From sequence record MZ502379.1: a DNA stretch of 64,000 bases; one strand, written 5' to 3'. Made by a program: the position numbers and the translations under genes. Every line of letters starts with the position of its first letter. Within the stretch, counting starts at the first letter, position 1. The notes under the pieces are model-generated. The model made no database searches. It was not told where the DNA came from and worked only from the letters and a program-made list of their open reading frames with translations. Positions 2,448 to 44,689 of this stretch are shown here, piece by piece. This DNA is from Escherichia phage vB_EcoM_Shinka.

Positions 2448-4267
2448 TACTGGCTCATCCATTCTTTACGAAGGTCAGCATTATCTCCCATGAGCATTTC
2501 AAAAAGCTCTTTCCAGTTCTCAGGAAGTTTAACAACATCATATACTGGGTTTTGAATCATCTCACGATATTCAGATTTTTCCAAAGAGCCAAGTCCTTTA
2601 ATATAACGGATGCTATGTTTAGGTAGAGCATCTTTGGCACTCTCATATTCAGCGACTGTATAAAACCATTCTTGTTTTTTACCGACCTGAGCGATGATTA
2701 CAGGAGTTTTGACAAAGCGAATTCGTCCTTGCTCAAACAATTCTGGCCAATTACTAAAAAACCCGAGCAGAGAAGGATAAATGCTTCCTAGGCCATCATG
2801 GTCAGCATCAGTCATAATAGCGATATTATGATAATTCAAGTTTTCAGCTTTTTCACCGAGAACTAATCCAGTGATTGCGCAAATATCAAATAGTTCTTTG
2901 TTTTTAAGCATATCTGCATAAGACATACCCCAACTGTTGAGAACTTTACCGCGCAATGGATAACCACCGTGAAGTTCTTTATCACGAACATCAATAAGAT
3001 ATCCGATAGCCGAATCACCCTCAGTCAAGAAAAGAGTAGTGTCAGCATCTTTACCACAAAGATTCGCTTTGATATGTTTATGAACCTTAGCTTTAGAAGC
3101 CTTTTTAGCTGCTTTAGTTTCTGCTGCTTTTTCTGCCGCCAATTTACGAGCCAAAGCAGCTTCAATAATCGGCATTAGAATTGCTTCATTATTCAAAATA
3201 GCACGTGAAATCTTTTTAGCATCAAGTTGAATATGACTACGAATTTCGCCAAATGGAGAAGTCAAACGCTCTTTAGTTTGAGAATCAAATCGCATGTTTT
3301 TCATATCACGAACAAACATAACGATTGTCAAACATTCTTTAACGCGTGCTTTAGTCACATCAATTTTGAACTTACGTTTGATTTGTGGAATAAGGTCTTC
3401 ACAAATATCATCCATAACACAGTCAATGTGATGGCCACCATTCTTAGTATGAATGTTATTAACGTATGTTAATTGACGAAAACCATCCGGTGAACGACCA
3501 ACTGCAATAGAACAGTTTTCTTGTTCTTGAACGATAGCATGCTCATCATATTGGCGTGCATATTTCTTAAAATTGCCCTGAACCTTTTTACCATTAAAGG
3601 TAAATTGAATATCAGGATAAACAACAGCAAGTGTCTGGAGACGATCTAATGTAATGTCAAGATAAACTTGAGATAATTCATTAGTTTCAAATGACATAAA
3701 ATCTGGAATGAAAGTAACACGAGTTCCTTTCCATTTTCCAGGAATAGTTTCCCATGATTTATTTTCCATGCCATTTGAACAACGAACTACAATATTATTT
3801 TGACCATCACCAGTTTCACCGACAAACATCACAGAAAAAATGTTTGTCAAACTAGAACCAACACCATTCATACCGCCAGTGACGCGTTCTTTATCATCAC
3901 CGAAGTTACCACCTGCTTTTGGAATAGTCCATGCAGCAACAGGACCAGGAATTTCTTCACCGGTAGGTGTTTTAACCATCGCCTGCGGAATACCACGACC
4001 GTTATCTTCAACTGTTACTTGATTGTTTTTAATAGTAACATTAATTTTATTTGCGAATTTAAACTTAGTACGAATACCTTCATCTACTGAGTTATCGATA
4101 ATTTCATCAATAAGCTTAACAAGACCAGGTACATACTGAACACTTTCCCATTTACCAAACAGAAAGCGCTCATGCATTTCATTAGCAGAAGAGCCAATAT
4201 ACATGCCACTACGCTTTTTGATATGCTCAATATCGCTCAGAATTTTAATTTCATTCTTAATCATCAC
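2447..4267 (-). CDS. 39: DNA topoisomerase II large subunit, GyrB-like ATPase plus Toprim, with the gene-60 segment fused in frame (606 aa)
   Basis: N-terminal GHKL ATPase region; C-terminal 115 aa (NIAIMTDADHDGLGSIYPS...KEWMSQ) correspond to T4 gp60; one uninterrupted ORF. Confidence 0.93.
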   Translation of the reverse strand: MMIKNEIKILSDIEHIKKRSGMYIGSSANEMHERFLFGKWESVQYVPGLVKLIDEIIDNSVDEGIRTKFKFANKINVTIKNNQVTVEDNGRGIPQAMVKTPTGEEIPGPVAAWTIPKAGGNFGDDKERVTGGMNGVGSSLTNIFSVMFVGETGDGQNNIVVRCSNGMENKSWETIPGKWKGTRVTFIPDFMSFETNELSQVYLDITLDRLQTLAVVYPDIQFTFNGKKVQGNFKKYARQYDEHAIVQEQENCSIAVGRSPDGFRQLTYVNNIHTKNGGHHIDCVMDDICEDLIPQIKRKFKIDVTKARVKECLTIVMFVRDMKNMRFDSQTKERLTSPFGEIRSHIQLDAKKISRAILNNEAILMPIIEAALARKLAAEKAAETKAAKKASKAKVHKHIKANLCGKDADTTLFLTEGDSAIGYLIDVRDKELHGGYPLRGKVLNSWGMSYADMLKNKELFDICAITGLVLGEKAENLNYHNIAIMTDADHDGLGSIYPSLLGFFSNWPELFEQGRIRFVKTPVIIAQVGKKQEWFYTVAEYESAKDALPKHSIRYIKGLGSLEKSEYREMIQNPVYDVVKLPENWKELFEMLMGDNADLRKEWMSQ

Positions 4268-21361: not shown

Positions 21362-21724
21362 TTAAAAGAATTTAAACTTTTTCTTTGACCTTTTATTGAA
21401 TGCATCTTGCAGTTGCATTGTAATACATTTTTCTACATGAGGAGCTAACTCAGCTTTTCTTTCTTGGTCAAGAACAGCAAAGTCCATTACAACCTTTCCA
21501 TCAACCCAATCCAGTTTAGTTACATACACTATATGTGTAGAACCATCTTCTAGTTTAATGACAATCTCCTGGATAACATTTTCCATAGCGGATTTAATTA
21601 TCTTAAGAGACTCATTAAAAAGACGTTCTTTTCTTTCTTCTTCCCCCTCCGAAGAGGGGGATTCATCGATAATTTCTAGATCTAAATCTAAATCATCTTT
21701 ATTCATTAAATTCTTCCATATCAC
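21362..21724 (-). CDS. 40: head vertex assembly chaperone gp40 (120 aa)
   Basis: Position between uvsX and 41; overlaps uvsX as in T4. Confidence 0.8.
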   Translation of the reverse strand: MIWKNLMNKDDLDLDLEIIDESPSSEGEEERKERLFNESLKIIKSAMENVIQEIVIKLEDGSTHIVYVTKLDWVDGKVVMDFAVLDQERKAELAPHVEKCITMQLQDAFNKRSKKKFKFF

Positions 21725-22880
21725 TTAACTGTTCGAGGTCAGTTTCTAAATCAGCAGCTGATTTACTTTTACTTTCTGGAGATTTAAATTTTTCAACCTT
21801 TGAGTTAATCAATTCATCAACTTCAGCTTCAACAATTTCATTACTATCAATAGCACCTAACTGATAAGCACGTTTAATAGCATCTCGGAATGGTTGATGC
21901 TTAAATAAAGGACCCCAGAATGTAGTGCAGTTAGTATCTTTTGCACGCCAAGATTTTTCTTCGCGAATCATCTCGCCGGTTTCTTCATCAAGAAATTCAC
22001 GAGCATACCAACCATTTTTAGGTTTTACCACAAATCCTAATTCTAGAGCCATATCTAACAATCCAGAATAAGGATCGATACCACCGTCAAATTTAACATC
22101 AATAAAGAATTTACTTTTTTCTTTAACGGTACGAGATTTTTCTACATTTAGAACAAATTGATACCCCTGAAGATCAGAACCATCTTTAATCTGACGCTTA
22201 CCGATAATGAATACGGTATCAGCCGAATACATTACGCCTGTACCACCTGTCATCACGGTTTTACTAAACATTTCAATGGTTTCAATTGTATGGTTAACTG
22301 CAACACATGGAATATTTTTAATGCTAAAATAAGGAGTAACAATACGGAATAATGACTTCAGCGATTTAGCACGAGTCATATCTGCCACAGATTTTTCATT
22401 CAAGGCATCTTCCGTTTCTTTCTTGGAAGCCATATTACCAATTGAGTCGATGAATACAATAACCTTTTCACCACGCTCAATAGCTTCAAGCTGGTTCACC
22501 ATATCAATTTTCAGCTGTTCAACTGACTGAATTGGCGTATGAATTACTCGTTCCGGGTCAACTCCCATAGATCGCAAATAAGCTGGAGTAATACCAAATT
22601 CGCTATCATAGAATAGACAAACCGCGTCAGGATATTTGTTCAAATATGCCGCAACCATAGTCAAAGACATATTTGATTTAAAGTGTTTAGAAGGTCCTGC
22701 GAAAATAGTTAAACCAGACTGCATTCCACCATCAATCGCACCAGAAATAGCGATATTAAGCATTGGAATTTTTGTACGAATTACATCCTTTTCATTAAAG
22801 AATTTAGATGTAGTCAGTTCAGCAGTCATTTTAGAAGTGGAAGCTTTAATCAAACGGGATTTTAAATCTGCAATAGACAT
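21699..22880 (-). CDS. uvsX: UvsX recombinase, RecA-like (393 aa)
   Basis: RecA-fold core with GPSKHFKS Walker A; near-identical to T4 UvsX over most of its length. Confidence 0.95.
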   Translation of the reverse strand: MSIADLKSRLIKASTSKMTAELTTSKFFNEKDVIRTKIPMLNIAISGAIDGGMQSGLTIFAGPSKHFKSNMSLTMVAAYLNKYPDAVCLFYDSEFGITPAYLRSMGVDPERVIHTPIQSVEQLKIDMVNQLEAIERGEKVIVFIDSIGNMASKKETEDALNEKSVADMTRAKSLKSLFRIVTPYFSIKNIPCVAVNHTIETIEMFSKTVMTGGTGVMYSADTVFIIGKRQIKDGSDLQGYQFVLNVEKSRTVKEKSKFFIDVKFDGGIDPYSGLLDMALELGFVVKPKNGWYAREFLDEETGEMIREEKSWRAKDTNCTTFWGPLFKHQPFRDAIKRAYQLGAIDSNEIVEAEVDELINSKVEKFKSPESKSKSAADLETDLEQLSDMEEFNE

Positions 22881-22957: not shown

Positions 22958-23800
22958 TTAATCAACTGCTATTGGATGAATAGCATTAAACTTATGAAAT
23001 GCTTCTGATTTTTCTTTACGAGAAACACACATGCGAAGAACCTTTAATGGCTCGTCTTCTTCACCCAACGATTTTCGTTTTTCAATATTAGAAGTTTTCC
23101 AACGAGCTTGCTCTGGAAACTCTCTATTGATTTGCTCAAGCGCTCTATTATGTTTAGAATTACTGCGAATTGAACTACATCCGCCAGGAGCTTGTGCTTT
23201 TCCAGATACAACCAGATATTTGAACAAGGCCAAATGCGGATAACCTTGATTAATTAAATTGAGAAATGCATACATATCTTCACACAAATCAATTTTTCCA
23301 TACCCAATTTGTTCTGTCGTAAGTTTTCCGAGGTCATACCATGTATTCGTGAATCCATATGAATTTTCACGATAATTACCCCAAGATGAAGTAATTTTAA
23401 AAATAGGTAGACGAGCATGGCCATGATAATACCCACAATCCATGGCATCCTCAACATATTGAATCAATTCATAGAACTGTTCACGAGTCAATTGATTGAC
23501 TTTATCCACACAACGACGATCATCTCTTTTTCGCATTGAACTCATACGAATAGTAGTATCATCGTCAATCATCCAGATTCGTTGACCTGCATACATATCA
23601 GTAATTGCTTTACGAGTACCAGCAATTCCGTTTACATCATCAGGAATAGTTATAATTTTAGCTCTAGACCCATAAGCATCATAATAAGCTTTTTCTTCAT
23701 GTTCACGCACTACAATATGTGGTTCATAATCAGTCGGAAACATATTAAGGGCAGAAACTGCCCCTACACGCTGATAACTTGGAATTACGAATTGAATCAT
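22958..23800 (-). CDS. GT-A fold glycosyltransferase, probably the T2/T6-type beta-glucosyl-HMC alpha-glucosyltransferase (280 aa)
   Basis: N-terminal VIPSYQR and DDD (DxD) motifs; occupies the locus where T4 encodes beta-gt but is unrelated in sequence. Confidence 0.6.
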   Translation of the reverse strand: MIQFVIPSYQRVGAVSALNMFPTDYEPHIVVREHEEKAYYDAYGSRAKIITIPDDVNGIAGTRKAITDMYAGQRIWMIDDDTTIRMSSMRKRDDRRCVDKVNQLTREQFYELIQYVEDAMDCGYYHGHARLPIFKITSSWGNYRENSYGFTNTWYDLGKLTTEQIGYGKIDLCEDMYAFLNLINQGYPHLALFKYLVVSGKAQAPGGCSSIRSNSKHNRALEQINREFPEQARWKTSNIEKRKSLGEEDEPLKVLRMCVSRKEKSEAFHKFNAIHPIAVD

Positions 23801-23818
23801 TTAAGTGCCTTACATTTG

Positions 23819-24439
23819 TCAAAATGGTATCTTGTCATATTTGGCCCACGTCCTTTTAGTCCGCAATGCGGACATATTTTTTTCTATCAAATTATGAGGT
23901 TTTCCTTTACGATTTTTAGACATCGTTTCTTTAATTATTTTAGCTTTTTCTGCGCCAAAAATTTCTTCATAAGTTTTACCAGAATTTTCCTTTGCTCGAT
24001 TTATAATTCCATATGCCTGTTCATTTTTACCATACATTGGATTACCTTCGCCTTTCATTCTTTTAGAATGATCAGGACGCTTGATTCCACGAAAGGCATT
24101 TCCGCACTTATATCTTTCTTCTGGAGATAATTTTTTACCGTACATTCCATTTAATTTGCCTGGAAAACTTCCTCCCCATGCTTCATTCTTTAAATTATAT
24201 GAATCCGGACAATTAGCAGCATCTAAACAGGTTAAAATAATTTCTTCAACCTGTCTAAACATTGGTCCTTCATATAATATTTCTTTATTAAAGGATTTTA
24301 TTCCATATTTCTTTTTAGCATGTTGCCAAACTACACCCGAACCATCATAATTCGGGTTGTGACCATCATGACTTCCTATATACCACTTTTTAGTTTTAGG
24401 ATGTTTATACTTATAAACATGTGGCACATTTACTTCCAT
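23819..24439 (-). CDS. GIY-YIG homing endonuclease, Seg-like (206 aa)
   Basis: N-terminal VYKYKHPKTKKWYIGS GIY-YIG module; NUMOD3-like repeats (GMYGKKLSPEE, GEGNPMYGK); overlaps the gene 42 3' end. Confidence 0.7.
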   Translation of the reverse strand: MEVNVPHVYKYKHPKTKKWYIGSHDGHNPNYDGSGVVWQHAKKKYGIKSFNKEILYEGPMFRQVEEIILTCLDAANCPDSYNLKNEAWGGSFPGKLNGMYGKKLSPEERYKCGNAFRGIKRPDHSKRMKGEGNPMYGKNEQAYGIINRAKENSGKTYEEIFGAEKAKIIKETMSKNRKGKPHNLIEKNMSALRTKRTWAKYDKIPF

Positions 24440-25170
24440 TTTCCAGTATAATCCTTTTTAGCAATATGAGTTTCACCGGTGTTCCACCAATGGTCAACTA
24501 AATAAAACTGATTTTCGTACACATGAAGACTTCCAACGTTCCATATAATAGAACCCGCTTTATATTGCCGCGATGGGTCGCCTGCATTCAAATCAGATAC
24601 TAATTTATCTAGTACGTATTTTTGCCATGCATAATCATTACGATAGCCTGCCCAGCAGTCATTGCTTCTCATGTTAACAACTGCATTGACTTTCTTATCA
24701 CGAATCAGGTACTGTACTGTATTAGTACACATGAAATCTGACATGCCATCTTTATTGTAGTCAAACTGCATAGATGGACGAGTATAAATCATGATACCAC
24801 GCCGAGAATCAGGATTTTGACCAAGTTCAGCTAAACACATGTCATATTGAGCATAGTTATCTTCTGACCAGATAGCCCAACCATAATTCGAGTTAATTTC
24901 ACCTTTAGAAGATGCTACTTGTTGCCAAATCTTCGGTGTTTCACCCGGAATATCTTTAACGAACAAGCTCTTAGATTTATACCATTCAAGTTCACGCTGA
25001 ATGTATTCATCATTAAGAGCGCCAAAAATAAACGGTTCATCTGCTACAAATGATGCGCCAATAATTTCAATAGTTTTAACACCAGTTTTATCAACTACGA
25101 AATCTTTTTCTTTTAATGCAAGCCCCAAATGAAGACGGATTTCTTCAACTGTCATAGAGTCACTAATCAT
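24430..25170 (-). CDS. 42: dCMP hydroxymethylase (246 aa)
   Basis: Thymidylate-synthase-like fold; 246 aa as T4 gp42. Confidence 0.93.
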   Translation of the reverse strand: MISDSMTVEEIRLHLGLALKEKDFVVDKTGVKTIEIIGASFVADEPFIFGALNDEYIQRELEWYKSKSLFVKDIPGETPKIWQQVASSKGEINSNYGWAIWSEDNYAQYDMCLAELGQNPDSRRGIMIYTRPSMQFDYNKDGMSDFMCTNTVQYLIRDKKVNAVVNMRSNDCWAGYRNDYAWQKYVLDKLVSDLNAGDPSRQYKAGSIIWNVGSLHVYENQFYLVDHWWNTGETHIAKKDYTGKWK

Positions 25171-26394: not shown

Positions 26395-29091
26395 TCAGCC
26401 AAACAGGAAGTCTAACGAAGCTTTTTCTTCATAGTCCATACCAGCCGATTCACACATGCCCGCAAGCGGTTTAACAAACGATTTTTGGAACAAAGTTGAG
26501 TAGTCAATCCAAGACAGTACGTCAGAACGAATTTCTTTTGGAAGTTCTGTACCCGACGGCCAAGCAATGCATTTGTCACCAAATGGATTTCCTTCACGCA
26601 ATGGAAGAACCATTACTTTATTTCCATCCAAAATTGGAGCTACACCTAAACCGCTAACAGCTCGACGATAAGTTAGCACACCGCGAATATGGAACGGGCA
26701 TTTAAATCCTGGCCAACCTTTATCATCATATTTCGCTATATCGTTCGCAGTTTTTACTTCAGCAATAACTTTATAGTCAAGTTGACGATATTCTTTCTCG
26801 AAGTTCTTGTAGTATTCTTGGACAGACTCTTCACCTTCTTGAAGAATACGACGAATACTTTCTTCGAGAGCTTCTTGGACCGCTTTAGGCGTTGAACTCT
26901 GCTGAGTTTCCATACCCATGATTTTTAGATGCGGTTCAGCAAATCGTTTATCTTCCATATCATAAACGTTCAGAGCATAACGCTTTTTCGCTTTCCAAAA
27001 TCCACCAATACCCTTTGAACCAAGTGGAGGGCAAGAAATAGCTTCACGGTCCATATGCATCAGATGCTCGCGGTTATTCATATAATCACATAACTCACGA
27101 TATGCAACATCAATCATAGGTTCCATCTTTTTCTTACCGAACTGATTCATAAATTCAACCAAATCGTTCTGCTCTTTGAATCGGTCAAGACCAACTTTTT
27201 CAATAACTTTATCTACACAAACATATACCGAATCAGTATCACCTGCTGCGATGAAATCTTCGCCATTAGTTCCACATACTTTATTCAGATACTCATTAAT
27301 TTTACGAGCAATCCACTGAATACCAACTTGGCCGAAAATTGTGATAGCAGTAGCATTTCGCAAATCATAGTAACGGAAATGAATATTACCAAGAGCACCA
27401 TAAAGACTGTTAATAAGAATTTTACGGTTCAGCTGATTTGTATTAGCAAGTGTAGCAGCTTTTTCACATTCCTCAATCAGACTATTGAGAACAGATTCAG
27501 TATAATTCGACAGTTCATTTAAGAAATCATCACTGAACTTAACATATCGTTCAACTTCTGGTTTAGTTGAACAAGACCCTGCGCCTTTCATAATAATCTT
27601 TTTAATAGCTTCGGCATTCATTTCTTCAGCGAACATTTTCTTTTTCCAGTCTTTACGCTGGAAAAATACTTTAGCGATTTCCTTTGGAATGATACCTTCT
27701 TGATGCTTATCATACATCCATCCATTCGGAGAACAAGAATATTCATCACTCGGTTTAGGAGCTGTTCCTGCAATATATTCATGAATTGGATGAACTTTAA
27801 ACTGACCACGAATAGTCTCAGGACTAATGTTAACCTGACGAATAATGCTCGGATACAGAGACGTCAAGTCAAAACTCATAATATATCGACGAGCAATTGG
27901 TTTAGGTTCAAATACGAATGCACCCGGAAAACTCTGTTTAACGTGCGAACCCTGTTGAGGAATAACCTTATGTTCACCTTTCAATGAGTTAAAAATAATA
28001 GCATCCCAAGTTTTAATAGGACTCATTACACCAGAAAAAGGCATTTTAGCATAATAAGACATACTTAAAACTAGATCGATAAACCCGCGAATTTTATCAA
28101 TTGCTTGAACTGATTCTACGTCAATGATGTTATAACTAATGTATCGTTGATGATTAGTCTCACGAAGTTTATTAATAGGACCATCATACGGTAATTTACC
28201 TTTTTTGGTTTCATGTTGAGCAACTGATTCCAAAGAGAATGACGGCAAATTAGTAAAAGCGAATTTCTTGTACAAATCTAAATAATCAAGAATAGATACG
28301 CCATCAATAGAATAAATTTCTTTGCTACCGTACATATTTTGAATTAGTTTAGATTTTACTCGACCGATTGGAGAGAAGCGTTTCATACTACGTTCACCGA
28401 GAACCATTTTAACACGATTCATGATATACGGAACGTCAAATCCCTCAATATTCCAACCAGTAAAAATAGCAGGTCGTTTCTGTTCCCAGAGATTGATATA
28501 TTCCATGAGCATATCACGCTCATTATCGAATGGCATATAAATTACTCGGTCAAGAATTTCTTGAGGAACTTCATCACCACCTTCACAGTCAAGCTTAGCA
28601 GCTAACTTTGCATCCCATTTTGATACTGAACCGTACATTGAATTCAAAAGGTCGAAAACATAAAAACGATCATCAATTGAATCATAATGAGTGATAGCAT
28701 CAATTTCATATTCAGCTTTCATTGGATCAGGAAATTTATCACCAGTAACCTCAATGTCACAGTTAGCTACACGAACAAATTTTCGGTCATAAACAATTTC
28801 TGAACCATACGTATCACTGATATAAGCGAGTTTAAAATCGTTCATACCAAGAGCTTCGAGACCGATGTCTTCCATTCGCTTCATCCAATCTCGAGCATCT
28901 TTCATTGATGGAAATTTTTGAGGAGCGCAATTTTTACCATAGATGTCTTTGTACTTTGACTCTTCCTTACAATGTCTAAACATAGTTGGAAGATATTCTA
29001 CTTCGCGAGTACGTTCCTTTCCATTTTCATCAATATAACGTTCAACAATGTTATTTCCGACTGTTTCGATAGAGATATAAAATTCTTTCAT
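26395..29091 (-). CDS. 43: DNA polymerase, family B (898 aa)
   Basis: 898 aa; exonuclease and polymerase motifs (DTDS, YGDTDS-like); matches T4 gp43. Confidence 0.97.
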   Translation of the reverse strand: MKEFYISIETVGNNIVERYIDENGKERTREVEYLPTMFRHCKEESKYKDIYGKNCAPQKFPSMKDARDWMKRMEDIGLEALGMNDFKLAYISDTYGSEIVYDRKFVRVANCDIEVTGDKFPDPMKAEYEIDAITHYDSIDDRFYVFDLLNSMYGSVSKWDAKLAAKLDCEGGDEVPQEILDRVIYMPFDNERDMLMEYINLWEQKRPAIFTGWNIEGFDVPYIMNRVKMVLGERSMKRFSPIGRVKSKLIQNMYGSKEIYSIDGVSILDYLDLYKKFAFTNLPSFSLESVAQHETKKGKLPYDGPINKLRETNHQRYISYNIIDVESVQAIDKIRGFIDLVLSMSYYAKMPFSGVMSPIKTWDAIIFNSLKGEHKVIPQQGSHVKQSFPGAFVFEPKPIARRYIMSFDLTSLYPSIIRQVNISPETIRGQFKVHPIHEYIAGTAPKPSDEYSCSPNGWMYDKHQEGIIPKEIAKVFFQRKDWKKKMFAEEMNAEAIKKIIMKGAGSCSTKPEVERYVKFSDDFLNELSNYTESVLNSLIEECEKAATLANTNQLNRKILINSLYGALGNIHFRYYDLRNATAITIFGQVGIQWIARKINEYLNKVCGTNGEDFIAAGDTDSVYVCVDKVIEKVGLDRFKEQNDLVEFMNQFGKKKMEPMIDVAYRELCDYMNNREHLMHMDREAISCPPLGSKGIGGFWKAKKRYALNVYDMEDKRFAEPHLKIMGMETQQSSTPKAVQEALEESIRRILQEGEESVQEYYKNFEKEYRQLDYKVIAEVKTANDIAKYDDKGWPGFKCPFHIRGVLTYRRAVSGLGVAPILDGNKVMVLPLREGNPFGDKCIAWPSGTELPKEIRSDVLSWIDYSTLFQKSFVKPLAGMCESAGMDYEEKASLDFLFG

Positions 29092-42063: not shown

Positions 42064-43877
42064 TGGTGCTTAACCCTATGCATGATTTCTTTATTTTTGC
42101 CGAGATTAAATCCGCGTTCGTTCGGATTTCCCAAATAACCACATGTTCTTCTTATTGTGTTCATCTTTTTAGGATCAGTTTCTCCACAAATAGAACAAAC
42201 AAATCCGTTTTCAGTAGGAGTCATTTCATGGGTACTTCCACATGTAAAACATTTATCTACTGGCATATTAACACCAAAATAATCTAAATGTTGTGCAGCA
42301 TAATCCCAGACAGCCTCAAGACCTTTTAAGTTATTTTTCATATCAGGAAGTTCAACATAAGAAATGTGACCACCTGTCGCAATGAAATGATATGGCGCTT
42401 CACGAGAAATCTTTTCAAACGGAGTAACATTTTCTTCTACTGAAACGTGGAAACTGTTAGTGTACCAGCCTTTATCAGTAACATCCTTTACACTTCCATA
42501 TTTTTCTGTATCAAGTTTACAGAAGCGATAGCACAGGTTTTCAGCAGGAGTAGAATACAAACTAAAAGCAAAACCAGTTCTTTCAGTCCACTGTTTAAGA
42601 TGAGCATTCATTTTAGTTAAAATTTCTTGCCCAATATCACGACCGACAAGAATATTCAATTCGTGAATACCAATGTATCCTAAAGACACTGAACTTCTAC
42701 CGTTTTTAAATAACTCAATTATGTCGTCATCAGGTTTAAGACGAACCCCGAATGCACCTTCTTGGTAAAGAATAGGAGCAACAGTTGCTTTAACTCCTTT
42801 TAAGGAACTAATTCTACACATCAAAGCTTCAAAACATAAATCCATTCGTTCATTAAATAATTCGATAAATTTCTGTTCATTGAACTGTGTTCCAATATAA
42901 GAATCTAACGCGATGCGAGGAAGATTCAATGTTACAACACCAAGATTATTACGTCCATCAAGAATTTCATTGCCAGTCGAATCTTTCCATACGCTCAAGA
43001 AACTACGGCAACCCATTGGAGAAACAGGAACAGATGAACCAGTGATAGCTTTATTGTTCTTAGCTGAAATAATATCAGGATACATCCTTTTGCTTGCACA
43101 CTCTAGAGCAAGCTGCTTAATATCATAGTTCGGATCGTCTTTATAAAGATTAACACCTTCTTCAACGAACATAACAAGCTTAGGGAAAATAGGAGTTATC
43201 CCATCACGACCGAGACCTTTAATACGATTTTTCAGAATTGCTTTCTGAATCATTCGTTCAGTCCAGTCAGTTCCCGTACCAAATGTAATTGTTACAAAAG
43301 GAGTCTGTCCGTTTGAACTAAAGAGAGTGTTTACTTCATATTCATAAGCTTGGAATGCATCGTATACATCTTTTTCTGTTTTAGATTGAGCATAATTCAA
43401 CGCATCAGCGATTTGCCATTTTTCTGCATCCTCAATATGTTTTGCATAGGTGCGTTTAACATAAGGAGAAAGTACTTTATCTACATTCGCAAAAGTCGTT
43501 CCGCCATATTGATGGGAAGCAACTTGCGCAGTAATTTGTGCCATAATTGCAGTAGCAACACCGATTGATTTAGGAGTTTCAATCTGTGCATTACCAAGCT
43601 TAAATCCGTTCTCAAGCATTCCTTTTAAATCTACTAAACAACAATTAGTAAAAGGCAATGATATACTGTAATCTAAATCATGAAAATGAATTAATCCAAC
43701 ATTATGGGCATTTACAATATGACTTGGAAGAATACGACAAGCGATATGTTTAGAAACAATACCGGCCATTAAATCTCTTTTTGTTGGAAAGACGCGAGAA
43801 TCTTTGTTGGCGTTTTCTGTATTTAATTCTTTATCTTTATTTGAAATAAAATTTAAAACATCTTTTTCTAAAGACAT
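42060..43877 (-). CDS. nrdD: anaerobic ribonucleoside-triphosphate reductase, uninterrupted (605 aa)
   Basis: C-terminal glycyl-radical region and Zn site (CFTCGSTHEM...CSICG); no intron. Confidence 0.95.
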   Translation of the reverse strand: MSLEKDVLNFISNKDKELNTENANKDSRVFPTKRDLMAGIVSKHIACRILPSHIVNAHNVGLIHFHDLDYSISLPFTNCCLVDLKGMLENGFKLGNAQIETPKSIGVATAIMAQITAQVASHQYGGTTFANVDKVLSPYVKRTYAKHIEDAEKWQIADALNYAQSKTEKDVYDAFQAYEYEVNTLFSSNGQTPFVTITFGTGTDWTERMIQKAILKNRIKGLGRDGITPIFPKLVMFVEEGVNLYKDDPNYDIKQLALECASKRMYPDIISAKNNKAITGSSVPVSPMGCRSFLSVWKDSTGNEILDGRNNLGVVTLNLPRIALDSYIGTQFNEQKFIELFNERMDLCFEALMCRISSLKGVKATVAPILYQEGAFGVRLKPDDDIIELFKNGRSSVSLGYIGIHELNILVGRDIGQEILTKMNAHLKQWTERTGFAFSLYSTPAENLCYRFCKLDTEKYGSVKDVTDKGWYTNSFHVSVEENVTPFEKISREAPYHFIATGGHISYVELPDMKNNLKGLEAVWDYAAQHLDYFGVNMPVDKCFTCGSTHEMTPTENGFVCSICGETDPKKMNTIRRTCGYLGNPNERGFNLGKNKEIMHRVKHQ

Positions 43878-44689
43878 AATTCTAATTTATCCTTTTGAAA
43901 TTCTTCGTCTAAATATGGGTTCCAACCCATTTTAAACCTTTTGATGAAATTATCAATTCTAAATTTCGGTAAGTTTAAATCCGCAAAAATAGATGATTTA
44001 CTTTTAAAATCTGGACTTAAATAATCATATAAAATTTCTGCGTATTTTAACCATAATATACAAGTACCAGATTTAATTGCTCTCGGAGTTTTCCAAGGTT
44101 TTACACCATACATCGGATTTCCACTTCCTTTATGCCTGATAGAAGATGAAATTCCAATTTTAATTTTAGCTTCCTTTGTATGCGAAAATCCACGATGTGG
44201 ATTTTCTTTCCAGTATTTTTTAGAAGCTTCTGATATTTTCTTTCTGGCTAAATTAGTATGATGCTTTCCATAAAATCCATGATTTTTGCCTTTATTACGA
44301 TTTCTTTTAATCATGGTTATTGATTGCTTTTCTCTAGTTTCTTTAGAAGGAGAAATACCATATGTTGTAAATTGGCCATCAGCATATGCTAAATTAAAAT
44401 ACTCTTTATTCCATACATCTTTTTCTATATTCTTTTGAAATTCAGCTTCAATGCTAGTTATTTGTTCATCTCCGACTAATTGAAAATATAATATTTCAAC
44501 TTTCGGCGTTTCTTTCAATAAGGCTTTTTGAAATTCGGAAGATGACGAAGACGAATAATAAAATTTACCATTTTTATCAATAATATTCGTTCCATCAAAA
44601 GTGCAATTGGTTTTACTTCCAATGTAATAATATGGTGGGATTTTAGCATTAATTCTATTAATAAATGATAGTTTATATACTACATTCAT
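43868..44689 (-). CDS. GIY-YIG homing endonuclease, Seg-like (273 aa)
   Basis: N-terminal YKLSFINRINAKIPPYYYIGS GIY-YIG module; NUMOD3-like repeats (GFYGKHHTNLARKK, GSGNPMYGVK); overlaps the nrdD start. Confidence 0.7.
   Translation of the reverse strand: MNVVYKLSFINRINAKIPPYYYIGSKTNCTFDGTNIIDKNGKFYYSSSSSSEFQKALLKETPKVEILYFQLVGDEQITSIEAEFQKNIEKDVWNKEYFNLAYADGQFTTYGISPSKETREKQSITMIKRNRNKGKNHGFYGKHHTNLARKKISEASKKYWKENPHRGFSHTKEAKIKIGISSSIRHKGSGNPMYGVKPWKTPRAIKSGTCILWLKYAEILYDYLSPDFKSKSSIFADLNLPKFRIDNFIKRFKMGWNPYLDEEFQKDKLELCL

Follow-up and report, generated by a model that had tools for sequence, protein, structure and literature searches.

What is the open reading frame (ORF) that lies between a glucosyltransferase gene and gene 42 of Escherichia phage vB_EcoM_Shinka, and could its product bias the inheritance of its neighbours? 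The ORF (23819 to 24439) belongs to a block of Tequatrovirus (T-even) early genes, all on the minus strand, and was studied in a stretch of 64,000 nucleotides (nt) of sequence record MZ502379.1, here called the window. The original prediction had described it as a free-standing GIY-YIG homing endonuclease gene that could drive marker exclusion of the adjacent genes in mixed infections. From the comparisons reported here we consider it likely that the ORF is a free-standing, promoter-less Seg-type cassette of a lineage which is found 3' of dCMP-hydroxymethylase/thymidylate-synthase (TS)-family genes in T4-like phages and homes on gene 42, and that the Shinka copy is disabled. The features on which the argument turns are the following:

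22958 to 23800, minus strand: beta-glucosyl-HMC-alpha-glucosyltransferase gene (ba-gt), 280 amino acids (aa), Pfam TAGT; downstream neighbour
23797 to 23877, minus strand: stranded 3' end of the ancestral seg gene in the +1 frame, encoding ICPHCGLKGRGPNMTRYHFDKCKALK and a stop, a CCHC zinc finger; the stop, TGA, and the ba-gt start codon overlap as ATGA
23819 to 24439, minus strand: frameshifted ORF of a predicted Seg-type GIY-YIG endonuclease, 206 aa, ATG start
23877 to 23883: homopolymer, A7 on the coding strand and T7 on the plus strand; A6 in relatives, the extra base shifting the frame
24430 to 24674, minus strand: seg-linked divergent tract, the last 245 nt of gene 42 (nt 497-741)
24430 to 25170, minus strand: gene 42, dCMP hydroxymethylase, 246 aa, Pfam Thymidylat_synt; upstream neighbour
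24493 to 24525, minus strand: codons HVYENQFYLVD (gp42 residues 216-226), HVYSRHFYLVD in the seg-less type; second difference cluster
24625 to 24672, minus strand: codons MRSNDCWAGYRNDYAW (gp42 residues 167-182), MRSNDVVFGFRNDYAW in seg-less Tequatroviruses; densest difference cluster and left edge of the tract

The position of the ORF between the TAGT and Thymidylat_synt genes was as originally described, and so was its overlap with gene 42, inside which the ATG (24439-24437) sits by 10 nt. Its end, at 23819, is made by a 1-nt insertion which had been overlooked. In VEc20, SsoM113, PYps14T and other relatives the gene is annotated as a 642-nt ORF of 213 aa that reaches 23797 and whose stop overlaps the transferase ATG (ATGA). 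Opposite the A7 of the window, all 77 copies from the phage database have A6, as does L013, an IMG/VR contig with 98% identity; a 66-nt stretch of the window has no exact match among the 77 copies, each of which is one base shorter. Residues 1-186 of the 206-aa ORF are those of the intact protein, the last 20 (NMSALRTKRTWAKYDKIPF) are out of frame, and the shift falls 27 codons before the end of the intact gene, with loss of the CCHC zinc finger. The 206-aa product corresponds to GenBank QXV73091.1 ('putative endonuclease [Escherichia phage vB_EcoM_Shinka]'). This exact protein occurs on one public contig only, versus more than 200 for the named 213-aa forms. Because the extra A shifts the frame and removes the zinc finger, the Shinka copy is probably an allele that lost its function recently and represents the decay phase of the homing cycle, and the protein without its terminal finger is probably unable to bind its target site. 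Marker exclusion by the Shinka allele itself is unlikely for the same reason, unless the extra A is a sequencing error. Independent frameshifts of the same gene were found in REP2/REP3 (contig L002; 641 nt, split into ORFs of 127 and 86 aa) and in PYps5T (MT828552; 643 nt, ORFs of 117 and 110 aa). A7 is followed, 3 nt further along the coding strand, by a perfect palindrome, GTCCGCATTGCGGAC (23859-23873), which comprises the CPHCG codons and forms a 6-bp hairpin; the two together resemble a slippery site with its hairpin, but all intact copies have this hairpin.

What kind of protein the intact gene encodes was examined with profiles, alignments and a structural model. The strongest profile match was to the 'homing endonuclease' family PHROG_314, with E = 1e-28 for the 206-aa ORF of the window and E = 2e-31 for the intact protein; the 'group I intron endonuclease' profile TIGR01453 was found below threshold (E = 3e-5; 24 bits versus a cut-off of 56). 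An AlphaFold2 model of an intact homologue (pLDDT 89) has the elements E7-12, E19-24, H36-45, E51-57 and H61-72, and its top match to a Protein Data Bank (PDB) entry in Foldseek was the I-TevI catalytic domain 1mk0 (E = 1.6e-3, probability 1.00, TM score 0.64); taken together, 1mk0 and 1ln0, both of I-TevI, gave a probability of 1.00, TM scores of 0.63-0.64 and root-mean-square deviations of 2.8-3.0. According to the model, the N-terminal domain thus adopts the GIY-YIG fold, a three-stranded sheet with flanking helices. The assignment rests on AlphaFold2 and Foldseek since the other matches to I-TevI were weak: the family profile found it in the PDB at E = 0.08-0.11, and hhalign gave a probability of 23%. 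A phmmer search of the PDB returned an ABC-transporter match only, which was dismissed as spurious. The predicted NUMOD3-like repeats are visible as two GxxNxMYGK repeats (residues 94-102 and 130-138), for which the single Pfam NUMOD3 match stayed below threshold (18 bits versus a cut-off of 20.4); many homologues have a precomputed PF07460 match. The intact 213-aa protein would accordingly begin with a GIY-YIG nuclease domain whose subtype, 'Y-x-GSG', is that of T4 SegA-E, continue with a middle part made up of a linker, the two NUMOD3-like repeats and helices, and end in a CCHC zinc finger.

Conservation was assessed in alignments of 28 and of 47 sequences, built from the 70 homologues found. 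The conserved positions are Y9, Y20, G22, Y31, S34, G35, E64, N82 and C189/C192/H205/C209. In the segments VY9KY...WY20IG, Y20 is invariant and Y9 is present in at least 90% of the 47 homologues, and both align with Y6 and Y17 of I-TevI. E64, which is family-conserved and stands with E65 in the helix FRQVEEIIL, and the invariant N82 in YNLKN correspond to I-TevI E75 and N90. Of the catalytic residues of the module, whose absence had been named as grounds for abandoning the endonuclease reading, the GIY and YIG tyrosines, the glutamate and the asparagine are found on alignment. The CCHC finger is present in at least 90% of the 47 homologues and invariant in the 28-sequence set, and R203 is invariant in both alignments; these five residues rank among the best-conserved of the family. 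In the model a beta-beta-alpha finger occupies the CCHC site, and this whole module is missing from the window copy. The dN/dS ratio (nonsynonymous to synonymous substitution rates) versus homologues is 0.12-0.28, and the family is therefore maintained as a protein.

Is the gene a fixed part of the T-even genome? The intact 642-nt gene occurs in 77 phage records at an identity of at least 95%, in 70 of them of at least 99%, from phages of Escherichia, Shigella, Yersinia and Salmonella; it is not new to the databases. Relative to about 491 Tequatrovirus records, which are those matching the adjoining part of gene 42, the 77 carriers leave about 414 (about 84%) seg-less, and a conserved position in all T-evens, raised as a possible objection, does not apply. 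At the counterpart T4 junction (b-gt/42) there is no gene and the gap is 23 nt, in agreement with the original prediction; left unmentioned was segA, which lies one junction off in T4, between uvsX and b-gt. The window lacks segA, its gap from uvsX to ba-gt being 77 nt. In seg-less AR1, EO1 and BYEP01, which have the same transferase, the gene 42 stop overlaps the ba-gt ATG (ATGA). The cassette has therefore been inserted to the nucleotide, and the overlaps are recreated on both sides.

The constant partner of the lineage is the TS-family gene rather than the transferase, a pattern that, judged from gene order, is as expected of a homing endonuclease targeting the TS-family gene. Wherever the context of homologues (44-71% identity) was checked, a Thymidylat_synt-family gene lay immediately upstream of them. 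In all seven metagenomic or genomic contigs found by exact-protein lookup a TS-family gene is upstream, and the downstream genes are unrelated (T4-type b-gt, a helicase, IMPDH, NTP-transferases and unknowns). Two records of Klebsiella phages, KLB2 and Roth67, were examined and have the same order. Eight IMG/VR loci carry seg after a TS-family gene, and three more a 67-aa zinc-finger remnant. In these three (L077-L079, at about 3189-3392) the 67-aa ORF directly follows the gene 42 homologue and matches the last ~50 residues, the zinc-finger end, of a Seg-family protein; it is a 5'-deleted seg remnant at the same junction.

A second link to gene 42 lies in its sequence. Compared with AR1/T4, the window's gene 42 is 96.6-97.6% identical over nt 1-496, 78.8% over nt 497-680 and 75-77% over nt 681-741. 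The 5' end of ba-gt is 97% identical between seg-plus and seg-less phages, with no divergent tract on that side; the tract is one-sided and sharply bounded. Over the last 261 nt of gene 42, the 491 records are distributed bimodally: 86 are 95-99% identical to the window, 405 are 80-90% identical, and no record falls between these groups. All seg-plus copies read belong to the high-identity class, the 77 seg-plus records matching through the adjoining gene 42 end, and no seg copy was seen among the 405 records of the low-identity class. In the two difference clusters, CWAGY replaces VVFGF within MRSND-...-RND, and ENQ replaces SRH within HVY-...-FY. Seg-less EO1 and BYEP01 carry both clusters in the window's form (S-type) and switch to seg-less sequence about 60 nt before the junction. 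Among closer homologues, seg co-occurs with xWAG[YF] gp42 and never with xVFG[FY]. Such a one-sided tract has the appearance of a co-conversion or linkage signature flanking the cassette, which plain mosaicism could produce also. The two gp42 clusters covary in about 90 phage loci, VVFG[FY] with R-H and xWAGY with [NR]-Q, which hints at a structural coupling in dCMP hydroxymethylase independent of the endonuclease.

Taken together, gene 42 is the probable target gene and also the probable source of transcription. The cassette would be read from gene 42 transcripts in the manner of promoter-less segC, segF and segG, and the overlaps suggest that seg is co-transcribed and translationally coupled with gene 42 and ba-gt. 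In a mixed infection, an intact enzyme would cleave the allele that lacks seg, at a site within or close to the 3' end of gene 42; the distance between the gene of a free-standing endonuclease and its cut is typically hundreds of base pairs (PMC2988022). The break would then be repaired by recombination with the seg-plus genome, through which the recipient would acquire seg and the gene 42 sequence next to it, and the outcome would be super-Mendelian inheritance, that is, localised marker exclusion, of the 42/glucosyltransferase region.

Several observations weigh against this interpretation or against parts of it: (i) literature searches returned no paper on a Shinka-type seg gene and no data on its cleavage, homing or expression; (ii) Pfam PF01541 (GIY-YIG) did not match even at E<=10 and PF19835 likewise gave no match at that limit, and some homologues do carry PF19835 or PF01541; (iii) no arginine aligns with the catalytic R27 of I-TevI, the R27 helix falling in a gap; (iv) in the distant homologues L098-L101 seg stands beside xVFG-type genes and the link to xWAG[YF] fails; (v) many WAGY loci are without seg; (vi) a mosaic joint of the ordinary recombinational kind, passed on by descent, could account for the divergent tract without co-conversion; (vii) a real mutation and a homopolymer error give the same Shinka sequence; and (viii) the few isolated 1-nt indels that separate the window from its closest relative, PYps14T, which affect small ORFs only (at about 12741, 13528, 18571 and 37479), may be real variation or homopolymer errors and bear on the trust placed in the A7 run. 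As to the arginine, the R27 helix equally lacks a counterpart in T4 SegA-E, and SegA, B, C and E are marked as active in a review (SegD as not determined; PMC2988022, Table 1); its absence therefore does not show inactivity. A GIY-YIG phylogenomics paper does not settle the question of the arginine in Seg proteins. Given the failure in L098-L101 and the finding that no nucleotide in the segment perfectly separates seg-plus from seg-less records, the WAGY allele was downgraded as a universal correlate of seg.

How far do these points favour other explanations? If the seventh A were a sequencing or assembly error in the homopolymer, the real phage would encode a normal, active 213-aa Seg. This is possible, though we think it rather unlikely. 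A7 is absent from the 77 database copies and from L013, the truncated protein is confined to a single contig, and the small ORFs differ from PYps14T by a few other isolated indels. On the other side, no frameshift was found in the large essential genes of the window, gp43, uvsX, gp41, gp46 and others being full length, which argues against a generally error-prone assembly; that the assembly is error-ridden throughout was rejected on this ground, the few 1-nt indels being isolated and all lying outside large genes. The frameshifts in REP2/REP3 and PYps5T, which look real, also show that this gene is lost independently elsewhere. Because the assembly is not generally poor and isolated indels are few, mutation and error are not separable here, and literature searches on phage Shinka did not return the sequencing method. 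A very improbable variant takes A7 as a recoding site, at which either slippage of RNA polymerase or a ribosome that shifts by +1 on A AAA AAT, just ahead of the GTCCGCATTGCGGAC hairpin, would yield some full-length protein and a low endonuclease dosage. One A fewer in the mRNA would restore the 213-aa frame exactly, and 3 nt separate the run from a perfect 6-bp hairpin downstream. Yet only this genome has the arrangement, A6 with an uninterrupted frame being found in the 78 other copies; signals of this sort usually cause a -1 shift, which leaves the frame unrestored; and the hairpin consists of the CPHCG codons, which are present equally in intact genes.

The gene 42 tract might instead reflect a single ancestral recombination with an xWAGY-type gp42 lineage, in which seg was a passenger that has since stayed associated by close linkage. 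We regard this account, too, as having a minority chance of being correct. It would explain the same sharp left boundary in all S-type records examined, the wide distribution of xWAGY gp42 with its many seg-less members, the xVFG-type neighbours of the distant homologues and the lack of even one perfectly discriminating nucleotide. A wholesale import would, however, have left uniform differences, and the mismatches are clustered (8, 12, 1, 4, 3, 9, 5 and 6 per 30 nt); the pattern in EO1 and BYEP01 is what repair stopping short of the endonuclease gene would yield; and the constancy of the TS-family neighbour despite unrelated downstream genes argues for target specificity. A recruitment of the Seg protein for the benefit of the phage, be it as repressor or regulator of 42/ba-gt, in competitor exclusion or through recombination-driven amplification of its neighbours, is improbable. 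Purifying selection (the dN/dS values above) is compatible with such a role, I-TevI also acts as an autorepressor (PMC2988022), and, according to a 2026 paper, phage SegB promotes the amplification of anti-defence loci (PMC13096335). The absence of seg from about 84% of the Tequatrovirus records and its frameshifts in several lineages fit a dispensable selfish element better, and neither an operator-like repeat nor a promoter of its own was found for the seg gene. We therefore retain, as likely, the view of a homing cassette attached to gene 42 and inactivated in Shinka.

Could the active-site codons of gene 42 be what the enzyme recognises? The T4 td intron interrupts the codons RSVDVFLG/LPFN (slash, point of interruption), which are homologous to the gp42 codons RSND-VVFGF-RND with the densest seg-linked differences, and I-TevI cleaves 23-25 nt upstream of the td intron insertion site (PMC2988022). 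The parallel between td and gp42 is a positional fact and no proof of the target. It raises the idea, speculative and in our judgement doubtful, that the Seg lineage is a free-standing counterpart of I-TevI/I-BmoI which recognises the active-site codons (RSND-VVFGF-RND) of TS-fold hydroxymethylase genes and spreads the CWAGY plus ENQ allele. If true, an alternative active-site allele of an essential DNA-modification enzyme would be spreading through T-even populations by homing, and the seg-less S-type phages EO1 and BYEP01 would be 'immunised' products of aborted homing.

The gene is an uncharacterised member of the well-known Seg kind, and another Seg gene in a T-even phage will not surprise a specialist. 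Most worth experiment are the constancy with which it adjoins gene 42 homologues and the alternative active-site allele with its sharp boundary. As the TS-family/dCMP-hydroxymethylase partner is constant across very different phages, target specificity can be tested directly, and the homing cycle can be studied in a natural panel of copies that are intact, frameshifted or reduced to remnants; the tight link to the alternative gp42 allele means that endonuclease-driven conversion may be reshaping a core DNA-modification enzyme. Database labels of the intact gene are mostly 'hypothetical protein', with some 'homing endonuclease', 'site-specific intron-like DNA endonuclease' and 'SegD', and the UniRef clusters of its proteins are named 'Homing endonuclease'. 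The label 'SegD' in LR746311 is a mis-transfer, the gene being orthologous to no T4 Seg. The annotation should be 'Seg-like homing endonuclease' (frameshifted in Shinka) instead of 'hypothetical protein' or 'SegD'. The name beta-glucosyl-HMC-alpha-glucosyltransferase (T2/T6 type) for ba-gt was taken from the annotation of near-identical GenBank records.

The remaining genes of the block are:

21699 to 22880, minus strand: uvsX
between gene 42 and gp43: imm-region genes
26395 to 29091, minus strand: gp43

Signals that might serve the cassette on its own were sought around it. No late promoter (TATAAATA) was found within 8 kb, sigma-70-like sites around the ORF were not in excess of shuffle expectation, RNA structure at the ORF start was not significant (fold z = -0.9), and an Rfam search around the gene gave zero matches, with no terminator or structured RNA of the cassette's own. 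Two antisense ORFs on the plus strand (182 and 89 aa) had no PHROG match and were set aside. A terminator-like hairpin, TAGGGGCAGTTTCTGCCCTTA, with a T-rich tail is located at 23746-23766 on the minus strand, 35-55 nt into the 5' end of the ba-gt ORF; the fPS-2 and DalCa records annotate a 'terminator' feature under the matching region, and the sequence is mostly present in seg-less phages too.

Other endonuclease-like genes were noticed nearby and in a relative. The window holds a second free-standing Seg-like gene (43868-44689, minus strand, 273 aa) between nrdD and gene 49, both of which it overlaps; it matches PHROG_7504 'homing endonuclease' (E = 3e-34), its N-terminus is 39% identical to T4 SegG, and it is absent from PYps14T. 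In BYEP01 (contig L094, 1-1071) the uvsX gene bears the label 'protein RecA' and is shortened (930 nt), with a 'NUMOD3 motif protein' next to it, which suggests another endonuclease insertion in or beside uvsX.

How does the Shinka-type protein compare with known systems? An alignment with SegA-G and I-TevI, a comparison that the original prediction had proposed, places it in the SegA-E subtype; the motifs VY-x9-YIG, then Y-x-GSG, KKYG, EIL, E, YN-x-K and GG are common to it and T4 SegA-SegE. SegC is the closest T4 protein (36% identity over 117 aa, E = 2e-13 in BLASTP). Like the genes of SegA-E, the Shinka-type gene is a free-standing one flanked by conserved genes, and T-even phages vary in whether they carry it. 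It differs in overall sequence (25-30% identity; 18-30% across SegA-G and I-TevI), in its junction (42/ba-gt, whereas SegA-E sit elsewhere) and in the C-terminal CCHC zinc finger, which none of T4 SegA-G has.

In its arrangement the cassette resembles T4 SegF at the soc/56 junction. Both start within an upstream gene of nucleotide metabolism, the overlap being 11 nt with gene 56 for segF in T4 and 10 nt with gene 42 for the Shinka-type gene, and the known target of the promoter-less SegF cassette is this upstream gene (PMC2988022, Table 1). Promoter-less cassettes have been described for segC, segF and segG (PMC2988022), and the features of the Shinka-type cassette match them. The identity to SegF is 23%, and SegF activity and marker exclusion have been demonstrated experimentally, whereas both are predictions for the Shinka-type protein. 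T4 SegA (uvsX/b-gt) is the Seg gene one gene away in the same block, so that different T-evens have Seg genes in the glucosyltransferase region; SegA is 29% identical, occupies the other junction and targets uvsX (PMC2988022). With I-TevI the protein has in common the GIY-YIG fold predicted for it, a modular build with linker and zinc finger, and the association with a thymidylate-synthase-family gene. I-TevI is intron-encoded, in contrast to the free-standing Shinka-type gene, and its R27 helix has no counterpart there; its zinc finger, CxxC...CxxC, lies within the linker and is followed by a helix-turn-helix, whereas the CCHC finger of the Shinka-type protein is a C-terminal module.

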